Origin: a virus
Length of the DNA: 64,000 bases
Reading direction: 5' to 3' (one strand)
IMG/VR virus record: IMGVR_UViG_3300012147_000006
Span: 64,001-128,000 of that record
This document shows positions 5,189 through 54,825 of the stretch, piece after piece. Each line of letters begins with the position of its first letter. Within the stretch, counting starts at the first letter, position 1. The notes beneath the pieces were generated by a model. It made no database searches. It was not told the origin of the DNA and saw only the letters and a program-made list of their open reading frames with translations. A program made the translations under genes and the position numbers.

Positions 5189-5692
5189 TTACAAAGCTCT
5201 CAAATAATCAGCAACTTCTTGGTCATCTCCTTGAAGGCCAGAGGCGCTTTTGTTGCACCATAGTTCAGCGGCTTCATCCCAGAAGTAGTCATCTCCCATA
5301 ATCATGTCATCAGAATCCTCTTCGTCATATCCCAGACAGCTGCAAATTTCCTCATGACTTTGCCCCCAGTCTTCTCTAAATCTCTTAATTCTCTCTTTTG
5401 TTGGCTTATTCATCTTCACCCCTTCTCCAAATACGTGACTTCCAATTGAATCAATAAATTCTCCATCTACATCAAATAAATCTATGACCAAGAAGTCTTC
5501 ATCTTCAAATTTAACTTGCGTAAAAGAATTGTCCTCGTGAGTAAGGTACACATAATCTTCCACGCCCTCATCATGGTTTGCTTCTACAATTGTTCTCACA
5601 TCGTATTCTCTACTCTCTCCGAGTTTGGTTACTACAATGGTTGTTGGCGTGGTAATCTCAAGAACCCAGCCCTCATGTTCAAATTTTCTCAT
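5189..5692 (-). CDS. Acidic hypothetical protein
   Basis: ORF between class I elements; stop codon supplied by TTGTAA of the next element. Confidence 0.8.
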   Translation of the reverse strand: MRKFEHEGWVLEITTPTTIVVTKLGESREYDVRTIVEANHDEGVEDYVYLTHEDNSFTQVKFEDEDFLVIDLFDVDGEFIDSIGSHVFGEGVKMNKPTKERIKRFREDWGQSHEEICSCLGYDEEDSDDMIMGDDYFWDEAAELWCNKSASGLQGDDQEVADYLRAL

Positions 5693-5882
5693 ATCTTTTG
5701 TTTTAGTCTGGTGTTATAACGACCCAGATTTAAAAAGTTACAAAACACAAATACCCCAACTTGTAGGCTGGGGCATTCTGGACTGACAAATGGTTTTAAC
5801 CATTCAAACAAAAGTGGTAACCGCCATTATCGGCTACCTACGGAATGGGTACGAGACCCAGCAGAGGAGACAAACCCTCCAT

Positions 5883-6074
5883 TTAATTTTTATCATTCAA
5901 GGCTTTCACTGTAGAGACGTACTTTGTCTGTAGGTCTTCTGCTGCGGCTTCATCCATCTCCTTGAGACGGGTAATCAATTTGCCTATCCCAGCGTCCTTA
6001 ACTGTTAATTCTCCTTTGGAAACCTTGCTAATGTTTCCTATAATTTTTCTTTCTAATTGTCTTGCGAAACTCAT
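5883..6074 (-). CDS. Small hypothetical protein with structured 3' UTR
   Basis: ORF after the promoter at 6099. Confidence 0.75.
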   Translation of the reverse strand: MSFARQLERKIIGNISKVSKGELTVKDAGIGKLITRLKEMDEAAAEDLQTKYVSTVKALNDKN

Positions 6075-51552: not shown

Positions 51553-52353
51553 TTACTCATATTTCCAAATAAATCCTTTAGCTGTTTTCGATTTTCCAAC
51601 ACAAGCTCTTCTAATGTTTTCTTCAATACATTTCATTTTATTAGATGCATCTCTACAGCTATCAAAAGTTCTTATAAATTCTCCACTTAAATCAAATTGA
51701 CCAACACGCCTTGCTGTTTTTTTGCCAGATAATTTATATCCAGATTTACCAGTATTCCACGGATTTGATTTAGTTTTAAAACTTCCATCGTTAGATTTTC
51801 TTTTTCTGTTAATATAGCAATTTATAAAATCATTAAATTGCTTTTCTGTCATAGTTTCGTATGTAATTTTCCTTAGCCATAAAAACCCTCCAGTAGAAAG
51901 TCTTTCTTTATCTATAGATTTAAACATATCTTTTCCAAAAACCCTCCTTGCTATGATATAAGATTCAAATTCTTTAACTACCACTCCAGAATCGCTAATT
52001 TGAAGTATAGGGATAGAGTTTTCTCCTTTTTTAAAAGATGTTTTGTTTGCAAATGTACAGCCATCTCCACCGCTAGTATGGTTAACTAAATCAAAGCCCC
52101 ATGTTTTAATTTGAGAAATCCAATAAGTTTCCCAAAACCTCCAATCATCTAAAGGAACAATATCTATAACTTCTATTATTGGTTTTAATTTTTTCTTTTT
52201 CAAAGACTCAATCCAATTTTTTTTATGAGTTTGATGCTTTCTAGCTTTATTTAAGTGTGCTCTATATCTTTGTGTTACATTATTAGCTTTACCAATGTAT
52301 CTAATTTTATTTGTCTCTGGGTCTCTTAGTGTGTAAATATTTGTAAAATTCAT
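51553..52353 (-). CDS. GIY-YIG homing endonuclease (NUMOD1)
   Basis: IYTLRDP..RYIGK, NHTSGGDG, TAKGFIWKY. Confidence 0.85.
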   Translation of the reverse strand: MNFTNIYTLRDPETNKIRYIGKANNVTQRYRAHLNKARKHQTHKKNWIESLKKKKLKPIIEVIDIVPLDDWRFWETYWISQIKTWGFDLVNHTSGGDGCTFANKTSFKKGENSIPILQISDSGVVVKEFESYIIARRVFGKDMFKSIDKERLSTGGFLWLRKITYETMTEKQFNDFINCYINRKRKSNDGSFKTKSNPWNTGKSGYKLSGKKTARRVGQFDLSGEFIRTFDSCRDASNKMKCIEENIRRACVGKSKTAKGFIWKYE

Positions 52354-52428: not shown

Positions 52429-53118
52429 TTAAACTGAAACTTTTGCTTTAATTGCAGGAAGTGGTTTGTAATCTAAAATCTTAATATCATCATATTGAAA
52501 GTCGAATATGTTCTTAACGTCTGGATTTAGCCAAATACTTGGTAATTCAGGACCATATACATCTGGCATATAATGAATGTTTTTGTTTTCCCAGAAATTA
52601 ATACCACCAGAACCATTAGAATATGTTCTGTCTAAAAGCTCATTTACTTGGTCTTTATGATTTGAATACAGGTGAGCATCCCCAAATGTATGAACAAACT
52701 TACCAGGCTTCATTCCAGTTACGTGACACATCATGTGCAACAGTAGTGAGTATGACGCAATGTTAAAAGGAACTCCAAGAAATGTATCTGCAGAACGTTG
52801 GTACAGTTGTAGAGAAAGTTCGTATTTTGGCACTCCCCAACCATCGCAAACTCCATGTAAATAACCTTTTTCAACATCCCAATTAGCATCTACACCATTA
52901 GTGTTTCCATAATTTACTGAAATGTTCATCCTTTCTCTGGATGTTAATTCTCTTGCTTGAAACTGGAAGAATGCATGGCAGGGTCTGAGTGCCATCTTTC
53001 CTGGTTGGACATGTTTTTTACCAAACTCTTTATTAAATCCTTTATCTGCTTTTAACTTTTCTAAAAACTCTTCTTTTGTAAGCGGAGCTCCATCTTCATG
53101 TGTATACTTTTTATTCAT
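52429..53118 (-). CDS. thyA: Thymidylate synthase, C-terminal half
   Basis: [12 protein letters not shown] (catalytic Cys), [30 protein letters not shown]. Confidence 0.92.
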
Positions 53119-53119
53119 A

Positions 53120-53374
53120 TTAATTTATTTTTTGGTTTCCCCATTTGGTGTTATCATAAGTAACTGTTTCCATTTTATCAACATTTACAAACACTCCCCA
53201 GCCAAACTCTGTTTGATAAAACGCTTCATTATCTTTTAATTGGTATATATCCTCATCATTTGGACCTACCTTTAACTTTCGTTTATGAGATAAATTAAAT
53301 TCCATTGTTTCGTCATAACCATTTAATTTTATGGTTTTTGGTAAATCTATTGTTTTTGTTATTTTATAATCCAT
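53120..53374 (-). CDS. Hypothetical protein between the thyA halves
   Basis: 84-aa ORF tightly coupled to both neighbours. Confidence 0.6.
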
Positions 53375-54213
53375 TCTTTAAAATTTTTATTTTTAACTCT
53401 ACCCCTTACTGTATTTTCAGATAAATCAAGTTGTCTTGCAGCTTCAGCAACGCTTCTATAAACAACTTCATTTATAGAACATTGTTTATTTTGAGCTGAA
53501 TTCAAACTTATATTTTTCTTGTGTTCATCAGTTTTTGGCTTTGAGTTAATTTCGCTCAACATTTTCTTTACTTCATCTGTATGTGTTTTCCCTTTAAAAG
53601 GATTATTTTCTTTCATCCACTGGGAGTGACCATCATTTGTTTTACCATTCCAATAACCCTCTTTTCCTTTGTTAGCCTCACTTATTTTTTTACTAATAAT
53701 TTTTCGCTCTTCATCGGGCAAATTTTGGTGCCATTCTTTTCTTTTGTCTGATATTATTTTTTTTGTCTCTTCAGTGTGAGTATTTCCATACATTGGATTA
53801 TTTTCTCCTAATGATTTGTCACCAAAAGATTTTCTCCATTTTTCAATTTCTTCAGAAGTTCTTTTTCGCCCCCTTGTAGGGTTATTTTCTTTCATCCATT
53901 CAGAGTGGTTTTTAGATATTAAATCTTTATCTTGATGGTTCGATATTGTGTCTCCACCCTCCCCTCCTGTTGCAATATTATATCCGTTAGGATAAAAAGA
54001 ACCAAGTTCATTAATCCAAAAGATTTCTCGCTCTGACATTTGCTCGTATGTTTCGCAATGTTCTAAAATTTCTTTTTTAAAATTATCTTTTCCATAATGC
54101 TTTATGGCATTTTTTAAAATCTTTCCACTCCCCAAATAATCAGGGTTATTAAACTTATCTTTACCAATGTAAAATCTTCCGTTTGCTAAATTTGTTGTTT
54201 TGTATATAATCAT
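53359..54213 (-). CDS. GIY-YIG homing endonuclease (NUMOD3 repeats) between the thyA halves
   Basis: IIYKTTN..FYIG, YLGSG, GYNIA.GGEGG, HTEETKK repeats; own TATTTATA at 54235-54242. Confidence 0.9.
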   Translation of the reverse strand: MIIYKTTNLANGRFYIGKDKFNNPDYLGSGKILKNAIKHYGKDNFKKEILEHCETYEQMSEREIFWINELGSFYPNGYNIATGGEGGDTISNHQDKDLISKNHSEWMKENNPTRGRKRTSEEIEKWRKSFGDKSLGENNPMYGNTHTEETKKIISDKRKEWHQNLPDEERKIISKKISEANKGKEGYWNGKTNDGHSQWMKENNPFKGKTHTDEVKKMLSEINSKPKTDEHKKNISLNSAQNKQCSINEVVYRSVAEAARQLDLSENTVRGRVKNKNFKEWIIK

Positions 54214-54246
54214 AATGGTATTACCTCATTTTATTATAAATACAAA

Positions 54247-54825
54247 TCATTTTATTTTTTTCAGATATTCTTGATAAAGTTCGTCATAACTTCTATTATC
54301 TGGCTCTGACAAATCCGCTACATTCCAAGCAGATACAATAAGGCCTCTATCCATTGGATTGAAATTGTCGTGACCTTCTGTAAGTTTGTCAACTATGTTT
54401 TGAATTTGATTTATGTGCTTATACATAATCTTAGGGTCTCTTGATTTTGATAACAAACCATCAGAAATGCTAATATAATGAGCTACCTCCCAATCTACCC
54501 ACTGCTTCCCGTATACTGGACCAAGGCTACCATCTTCATCGGCCCATTCATCCCAGATGTGAACTTTATTATCTACAAGGTATTTTATATTTGTCATTTC
54601 AAGACCTTCGTATTCTTTAAGGTTGGTATGATTACCAAGGAGCCAAAGTAGTTCATGAGTAACTCCTGGCATCCAAGTTTTCTTTAAAGTAAGAAGTGGG
54701 AATCCGTCATCCATATTATAAGTAGATTGGTGTCCGAATATTTTTACAGTACCAGTGCCAGTTCTATCGTCAGACTTGTGTCCTTCGTTTATAATTCTAT
54801 GAATTAAATCTGTATATTGTTTCAT
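54247..54825 (-). CDS. thyA: Thymidylate synthase, N-terminal half
   Basis: MKQY, DRTGTGT, FPLLT.K, ELLW, IWDEWA, LGPVYG.QW, NQI, IVSAWN. Confidence 0.92.
   Translation of the reverse strand: MKQYTDLIHRIINEGHKSDDRTGTGTVKIFGHQSTYNMDDGFPLLTLKKTWMPGVTHELLWLLGNHTNLKEYEGLEMTNIKYLVDNKVHIWDEWADEDGSLGPVYGKQWVDWEVAHYISISDGLLSKSRDPKIMYKHINQIQNIVDKLTEGHDNFNPMDRGLIVSAWNVADLSEPDNRSYDELYQEYLKKIK

Follow-up and report, generated by a model that had tools for sequence, protein, structure and literature searches.

Known split and interrupted genes

To our knowledge, homing endonucleases are thought to persist in essential genes only by way of self-splicing introns or inteins, and rare exceptions such as the nrdA gene of phage Aeh1 look like lucky accidents. 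Here we analyze a thymidylate synthase gene (thyA) that is divided into two open reading frames (ORFs) by a GIY-YIG endonuclease cassette, in a 64,000-nucleotide stretch of viral DNA (the window; positions 64,001 to 128,000 of IMG/VR record IMGVR_UViG_3300012147_000006) that is part of a 142-kb phage contig. Genes in pieces that were split by endonucleases are already known. In Aeh1, nrdA is split by mobE, its catalytic residues lie on two polypeptides, and activity has been shown (2007 work, summarized in PMC2988022). T4 topoisomerase genes 39/60 are split by mobA, and gp43 of Aeromonas phage 25 is split by seg43(25) (PMC2988022); both are endonuclease-associated splits of an essential enzyme, and in both the two subunits reassemble. 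In the fractured genes, split inteins flank a free-standing endonuclease (Dassa et al. 2009, PMC2677866).

The window locus resembles Aeh1 nrdA/mobE in that a free-standing endonuclease occupies a nucleotide-metabolism gene that is contiguous in relatives and in that the split falls in the catalytic region, with no intron or intein and with the catalytic residues on two polypeptides. It differs in its host gene (thyA, not nrdA) and its endonuclease (GIY-YIG and I-TevI-like, not HNH), as well as in having conserved tail and leader peptides, a passenger slot, and many unrelated thyA alleles as hosts; moreover, activity was shown for Aeh1 and is predicted here. Unlike the splits of T4 39/60 and phage 25 gp43, which are fixed in their lineages, the split described here travels on a defined cassette that brings its own adaptor peptides, and close relatives are polymorphic for it.

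The host gene and the endonuclease recall T4 td/I-TevI and B. mojavensis thyA/I-BmoI, in which a thymidylate synthase gene carries an insertion in active-site-encoding sequence and the GIY-YIG endonuclease has NUMOD3 and an I-TevI-type DNA-binding domain. In contrast to those introns, no ribozyme was detected here, and two polypeptides rather than a spliced one would be made. The T4 td intron also interrupts its gene further downstream, whereas the site described here is upstream of the catalytic Cys. The layout of the fractured genes (N-half with extension, endonuclease gene, extension with C-half) is shared as well, including extensions that belong to the mobile element and whose presumed role is to restore the host protein. 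However, the extensions here are too short, are helical, and lack every intein motif, so any rescue must be noncovalent. We found no paper describing a split thymidylate synthase in the literature searched, and what is new relative to that literature is the thyA host, the intronless I-TevI-type endonuclease, the selected cassette-borne adaptor peptides, and the passenger slot.

An endonuclease insertion splits thyA

On the minus strand of the window, the N-terminal half of thyA (N-half) is followed by a 33-nt spacer, the GIY-YIG endonuclease gene, an 84-aa ORF, and the C-terminal half (C-half) (Table 1). An initial annotation, made from the DNA letters, had placed the break between SAWNVADL and KMALRPCH, just before the catalytic Cys, and had noted that the N-half gains a tail, that the C-half has its own ATG and a 40-aa leader, and that the interval is filled by a GIY-YIG gene and an 84-aa ORF with gaps of 33 and 1 nt; coordinates, Pfam matches, and translations agree with all of this, and the tail is the 20-aa peptide SEPDNRSYDELYQEYLKKIK. 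The cassette lies between the codons corresponding to E. coli D139 and K140, five codons upstream of that for the catalytic Cys. Pfam profile positions 1 to 139 and 140 to 266 are contiguous across the break, and therefore nothing was lost there: no ThyA residue is missing or duplicated, the Asp of the LDKM sequence of the relative being replaced by Ser173 or Gly40.

Both halves are recognizable as ThyA. The N-half and C-half scored 151 and 144 bits, respectively, against PF00303 (cut-off, 24.3) and 118 and 150 bits against TIGR03284, the ThyA equivalog profile (cut-off, 108), and together they hold the catalytic Cys, QRSxD, the Asn that specifies deoxyuridine monophosphate (dUMP), and the His-x-Tyr motif that mark the family. 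The N-half carries DRTGTG, the W-x-x-W/DEW region, and the phosphate-binding Arg of DRG (E. coli R126 position), and the C-half carries the catalytic Cys, QRSAD, PFNIASY, and DAHLYSNH; all of the residues listed in the initial annotation as kept (DRTG, IW, PCH, QRSAD, the dUMP-specific Asn, and HLY) were found in the translations. Catalytic motifs are intact in both halves in every lineage seen. In the DRG sequence before LIVSAWN (window 54337-54345, minus strand), Gly stands in place of the second Arg of the RR pair that binds the dUMP phosphate (E. coli R127); this Gly is found throughout the window clade, including an unsplit relative (L003), whereas SRR is retained in the most divergent split copy (L066) and in canonical ThyAs. 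The 142-kb contig yielded neither a second ThyA nor a ThyX.

The thyA split is real and derived, and it was caused by endonuclease insertion, as had been proposed from the window alone. The syntenic relative L003 (IMGVR_UViG_3300026097_001455) has a single uninterrupted 342-aa thyA and lacks both endonucleases found at the window locus, although its neighbors are the same as those in the window (a 375-aa gene, a 304-aa gene, thyA, and a deoxynucleoside monophosphate [dNMP]-kinase-like gene). The window halves align end to end with this ThyA, which in turn matches the PDB ThyA 6AUJ with an E value of 4.8e-76, and the unsplit L003-type sequence around the insertion site reads ...GCATGGAATGTTGGACAGCTTGATAAGATGGCG.... 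The N and C parts are contiguous in 33 of 35 viral relatives, the two exceptions being an intron-bearing gene (L005) and a gene at a contig end (L037). The same 2.5-kb arrangement is present, identical, on contigs from JGI, ENA, and Logan samples, and this recurrence in independent samples indicates that the split is not an assembly artifact. Overall, at least 15 contigs, each from an independent sample, carry the split architecture, which spans no fewer than six diverged genomic backgrounds (the window, L055/L064, L059, L060, L062, and L066); in each of these, both thyA halves and the endonuclease are intact. No other IMG/VR contigs carrying the leader were found. A match to thyA_1 of an Acinetobacter "phage" proved to be an ordinary bacterial-type locus and was set aside as irrelevant. 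The locus thus combines a gene contiguous in relatives, a colinear ORF pair, a free-standing endonuclease between the two ORFs, and no intron or intein, as expected of a gene in pieces.

Table 1. Features of the split thyA locus and its surroundings (window coordinates unless another contig is named; AF2, AlphaFold2; pLDDT, predicted local distance difference test score)
Feature	Coordinates	Strand	Description
thyA N-half	54825..54247	-	192 aa; PF00303 profile positions 1-139 on residues 2-173
thyA N-half core, codons 1-172, ending ...SAWNVADL	54310..54825	-	PF00303 E 4.5e-44; colinear with unsplit L003 ThyA
Tail, 20 aa, C-terminal (SEPDNRSYDELYQEYLKKIK), with TGA stop	54247..54309	-	Cassette-borne; in all cassette copies, unrelated thyA backgrounds included
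33-nt spacer with GAGG Shine-Dalgarno sequence for the endonuclease	54214..54246	-	≤2 differences among six copies
GIY-YIG homing endonuclease, I-TevI-like, free-standing, 284 aa	53359..54213	-	TIGR01453, NUMOD3, I-TevI_DNA-bd; own Shine-Dalgarno sequence and ATG
84-aa passenger ORF	53120..53374	-	Start overlaps endonuclease end by 16 nt; stop 1 nt before C-half ATG
thyA C-half	53118..52429	-	229 aa; PF00303 positions 140-266 begin exactly at K41
Leader, 40 aa, N-terminal on C-half	52999..53118	-	Cassette-borne; present in 8 protein clusters
thyA C-half core from K41 (KMALRPCH...)	52429..52998	-	PF00303 E 5.9e-42; AF2 mean pLDDT 78.7
Second GIY-YIG/NUMOD1 endonuclease gene, separate, free-standing	51553..52353	-	Between thyA C-half and dNMP kinase gene; Pfam
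Passenger slot	Window 53120-53374; L059:4808-5008; L060:4353-4610; L066:3278-3508	- (window)	

A mobile cassette with its own terminal peptides

The endonuclease has a predicted I-TevI-like architecture, with an N-terminal GIY-YIG domain, NUMOD3 linker repeats, and a C-terminal I-TevI-type helix-turn-helix DNA-binding domain. It matched TIGR01453 (96.7 bits; cut-off, 56), NUMOD3 (53 bits; cut-off, 20.4), I-TevI_DNA-bd (28.4 bits; cut-off, 27), and phrog_314 (E 7e-53), and its GIY-YIG domain scored 22.2 bits against PF01541, just below the cut-off of 22.6. Identity to the nearest cultured-phage endonucleases is only ~30%. Substitution rates were estimated as Nei-Gojobori counts (proportions of synonymous and nonsynonymous differences, pS and pN; synonymous rate, dS; and the ratio of nonsynonymous to synonymous rates, omega). 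The endonuclease is kept in every cassette context seen, with an omega of about 0.14 and a dS far under that of the host backbone.

All contexts have a common order, namely, N-half with tail, spacer, 284-aa endonuclease, small ORF, and leader with C-half, and all 8 leader-defined protein clusters are ThyA C-halves. The sequence shared between copies begins ~21 nt upstream of the tail and ends immediately after the leader, and these limits imply that tail and leader belong to the mobile unit and not to the host allele. Backbone genes and the distal parts of thyA are synonymously saturated (pS 0.62-0.80), and endonuclease pS among five backgrounds is 0.05-0.39. For example, L059 and L060 have an endonuclease dS of 0.05 and identical tail and leader; their flanks are saturated and their neighboring genes are unrelated, L060 having glutamine synthetase, dCD/dUTPase, and PcfJ neighbors and a much shorter, divergent thyA. 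L062 represents a further separate background. L066, the most divergent cassette copy, has an N-half of 245 aa, and its endonuclease is nearly saturated relative to the others (pS 0.67). By these comparisons, the cassette is clearly mobile and much younger than its flanks, and the tail and leader are cassette parts that travel with the endonuclease into unrelated thyA alleles, not local accidents. No re-fused or endonuclease-less derivative was found, and among proteins of 125 to 2000 aa none contained the leader internally.

Both new ends show the substitution pattern of coding sequence. Between the window and L055, the leader has 10 synonymous and 3 nonsynonymous changes (S = 21, N = 99; omega 0.04), and its omega is about 0.04-0.3, with values of 0.04-0.2 among the closer copies. 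Relative to L066, pS and pN are 0.37-0.62 and 0.14-0.17 for the leader (binomial P value for synonymous excess, 2e-4 to 0.03) and 0.61-0.71 and 0.15-0.20 for the tail (P value, 0.008-0.04). Hydrophobic positions are invariant in both peptides, and substitutions fall on polar positions. Such patterns show protein-level purifying selection on both extensions, as in translated and functionally constrained peptides, and this synonymous bias argues against a ribozyme and against a dead gene. The initial annotation had anticipated helical extensions on both halves, and AF2 indeed predicted one helix in the tail (residues 180-191) and two in the leader (residues 15-24 and 26-35; pLDDT about 77-80); a linker predicted with low confidence connects the leader helices to the catalytic strand. 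Taken together, the helical prediction and the purifying selection of the extensions fit a zipping of the two halves.

As for the origin of leader and tail, Pfam and Atlas searches gave no match of any weight. NF002497 aligned with the N-half through residue 189, and the idea that the tail is a degenerate copy of the KMALRPCH...FQF strand was considered on that account; it is unsupported, the DNA identity being ~38% (hand count) versus roughly 30% expected, and hhalign finds nothing. Derivation of the new ends from a duplicated ThyA helical module was likewise not significant, as the best matches were leader residues 11-29 with the REL-T-x-x-ER start of the clade's helical insertion (E 0.6) and the tail with the N-terminal helix (E 0.15).

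Proposed assembly of the two halves

We consider it likely that the locus encodes a genes-in-pieces ThyA comparable to Aeh1 NrdA/MobE, with the cassette-borne helical peptides probably clasping the halves. Under this model, a mobile homing-endonuclease cassette, made up of 20 tail codons plus a stop, the ribosome-binding site (RBS) spacer, the endonuclease gene, the passenger slot, and an ATG plus 40 leader codons, has inserted between the D139 and K140 codons of thyA. One operon would then give rise to two polypeptides, N-core with tail and leader with C-core, by neither RNA nor protein splicing. Because the break separates the SAWN strand from the MALxPCH strand, the halves must cofold to complete the central sheet, and most likely they would do so noncovalently to form a ThyA-like (N.C)2 enzyme with composite active sites, to which the N-half would contribute Arg and Trp and the C-half would contribute Cys, QRSxD, Asn, and His-x-Tyr. 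The amphipathic tail helix and the leader helical hairpin would meet at one surface point, where they probably form a small three-helix clasp. The endonuclease, for its part, would presumably cut unsplit thyA alleles and copy the whole cassette, with both adaptor peptides, into them. We infer the enzyme activity, the association of the halves, the role of the clasp, and the cleavage target from these comparisons.

Several points weigh against this interpretation. Omega is low in the cores, but the cassette re-homes into fresh functional alleles, and therefore the intact halves and the low core values may partly predate the split. The tail data are sparse (20 codons; P value, 0.008-0.04), and selection on tail and leader could serve the cassette, for instance through endonuclease expression or regulation, and not ThyA assembly. 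Comparisons of the window with L044 and of L055 with L064 resemble recombination mosaics. The contig is only about 65% complete, so another route to thymidine monophosphate is possible, and the endonuclease belongs to a family that is usually intron encoded (TIGR01453).

It appears that the mobile element itself carries the neutralizing device. The stop, the restart codon, and the two protein-selected peptides move with the endonuclease. If these peptides hold the halves together, they would represent a new way for a selfish element to keep down its cost to the host gene and a natural, transferable protein-fragment-complementation module in a well-studied enzyme, and they would be a warning against annotating split genes in phage metagenomes by default as pseudogenes or as containing introns. 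A portable clasp would also mean that the same cassette could colonize divergent thyA alleles and ferry exchangeable passengers between phages. We tentatively suggest, as a possibility that we hold with rather less conviction than the two-polypeptide ThyA itself, that cassettes of this kind achieve phenotypically neutral insertion by a third route besides introns and inteins.

Competing explanations

The intervening sequence is neither a detectable self-splicing intron nor an intein, in agreement with the initial annotation, which had seen no group I core and no intein termini. A cryptic intron, whether group I with endonuclease and passenger looped out or group II, would yield a single-chain ThyA, and the idea draws on the endonuclease being of the I-TevI/TIGR01453 "group I intron endonuclease" type, on td/thyA genes being classic intron hosts, and on the 93 + 121 nt of non-ORF and extension sequence being not impossibly short for a core. 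A true intron of this sort is seen in L005 (IMGVR_UViG_3300033146_002014), where thyA is interrupted at a td-type site after QRS(V) (5630-6010) by a classical group I intron; the ~400-nt insert has no ORF, has group I R (ACGACTA) and S (TGATATAGTC) elements and a P9-like hairpin, and is an ordinary intron that provides a useful contrast to the window. A whole-region Rfam scan could not decide the matter, because a scan of this type failed to pick up even the T4 td intron; such scans were therefore discarded as evidence and replaced by piecewise scans with T4 td controls. With Intron_gpI, the 3' and 5' td pieces were both detected (28.9 bits, E 5.5e-6, and 15.5 bits, E 0.057), whereas window pieces 52980-53380, 52985-53119, and 54214-54340 gave no match at E ≤ 10, so the group I part of the covariance-model check suggested in the initial annotation came out negative where its controls were positive. 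A group II (domain V/VI) match was absent at E ≤ 10 in the whole-region scan, no S element was found within the region with ≤2 mismatches, and there are no R/S elements. Folding energies of the flanks were -11.7 and -12.5 kcal/mol (z -0.9 and +0.2), no better than for shuffled sequences and roughly one-third of those of the td pieces (-30.1 and -42.5 kcal/mol; z -1.6 and -2.6). Furthermore, no in-frame junction combines an exon 1 U and an intron-final G with the universal L-x-K-M spacing, the tail and leader show coding-type evolution, and the endonuclease-to-C-half stretch is nonhomologous among cassette types, its 3' part being replaced by unrelated ORFs in other copies, so it cannot be a conserved ribozyme core. 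A spliced single-chain product is thus very improbable. Even less probable, to the point of being negligible, is that the tail and leader form a very small or atypical split intein that joins the halves by protein trans-splicing. The layout of N-half, endonuclease, and C-half is that of the fractured genes of Dassa et al. 2009 (PMC2677866), and the tail begins with Ser in most copies; however, that residue is Pro in L066, the two peptides amount to 60 aa compared with about 130 aa for a HINT domain, and they are predicted to be helical, not beta. The leader ends in ...QPG or ...QEG, with no terminal Asn/Gln and no His-Asn, the +1 residue is Lys and not Cys/Ser/Thr, and no Pfam intein or Hint match was obtained for the window proteins.

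The remaining explanation, that the split thyA is dead and the cassette purely selfish, is unlikely but deserves more weight than either form of splicing. The phage would use the host ThyA or some other route, re-homing would keep the halves intact looking, and the conservation of tail and leader would reflect a need of the cassette itself, be it translational coupling, regulation of the endonuclease, target immunity, or the like. The mobility and youth of the cassette relative to its flanks and the mosaic nature of those flanks are compatible with such a scenario, as is the viability of T4 td mutants on thyA+ hosts. The Gly that the window clade has in place of the second Arg in the dUMP-phosphate-binding pair could be read in the same way, but the unsplit relative has it too, so it is not damage that followed the split. 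L066 differs from the other copies at an endonuclease pS of 0.67, yet it is inserted at the same thyA codon, both of its halves are open, and its motifs are kept. In all copies, the leader is in frame with the C-core, has its ATG coupled to an upstream stop, and changes with a synonymous bias, a combination difficult to reconcile with an unimportant C-half protein, and a dispensable ORF of the same cassette, the L059 passenger, does decay. These observations favor a ThyA made and used as two polypeptides over a dead gene.

An exchangeable passenger slot

Three unrelated kinds of small ORF, with lengths of 84/86 aa (the kind found in the window), 85 aa, and 76 aa, occupy the slot that separates the endonuclease from the C-half; the unrelated ORFs stand in for that of the window in L059/L060/L062 and in L066. 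The L059 passenger ORF has a premature stop, and the passenger/C-half junction of L059 and L060 contains a tandem repeat of ATGAATAAAAA. In every copy, the C-half ATG lies 1 nt past the passenger stop or overlaps it, suggesting translational coupling. The 84-aa protein has 13 homologues, and the distant ones are free-standing in small-phage-gene arrays, with no thyA or endonuclease nearby. Given three unrelated ORFs in one slot, the 84-aa ORF, although a genuine gene, is an exchangeable passenger, and it is unlikely to help in ThyA assembly. More generally, the cassette seems to ferry small genes between phages.

Other features of the locus

The thyA genes of this clade have a hypervariable insertion of 30 to 55 aa, partly helical, between FQFQAREL and VPKYELSLQ (window 52810-52950, minus strand, and the equivalent region of the relatives), which is almost wholly different even between otherwise close alleles. 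At the endonuclease RBS, a weak AU-rich hairpin (window 54200-54246, minus strand) can pair across the GAGG and ATG, recalling the RBS-sequestering hairpins of I-TevI and Aeh1 mobE; its stability is not better than that of shuffled sequences (z -0.9).

The second endonuclease gene (Table 1) is a neighboring element outside the split cassette. Its counterpart is missing in L055-58 and L064, as well as in the unsplit L003, and is present in L059. In total, the 142-kb contig carries five GIY-YIG genes.

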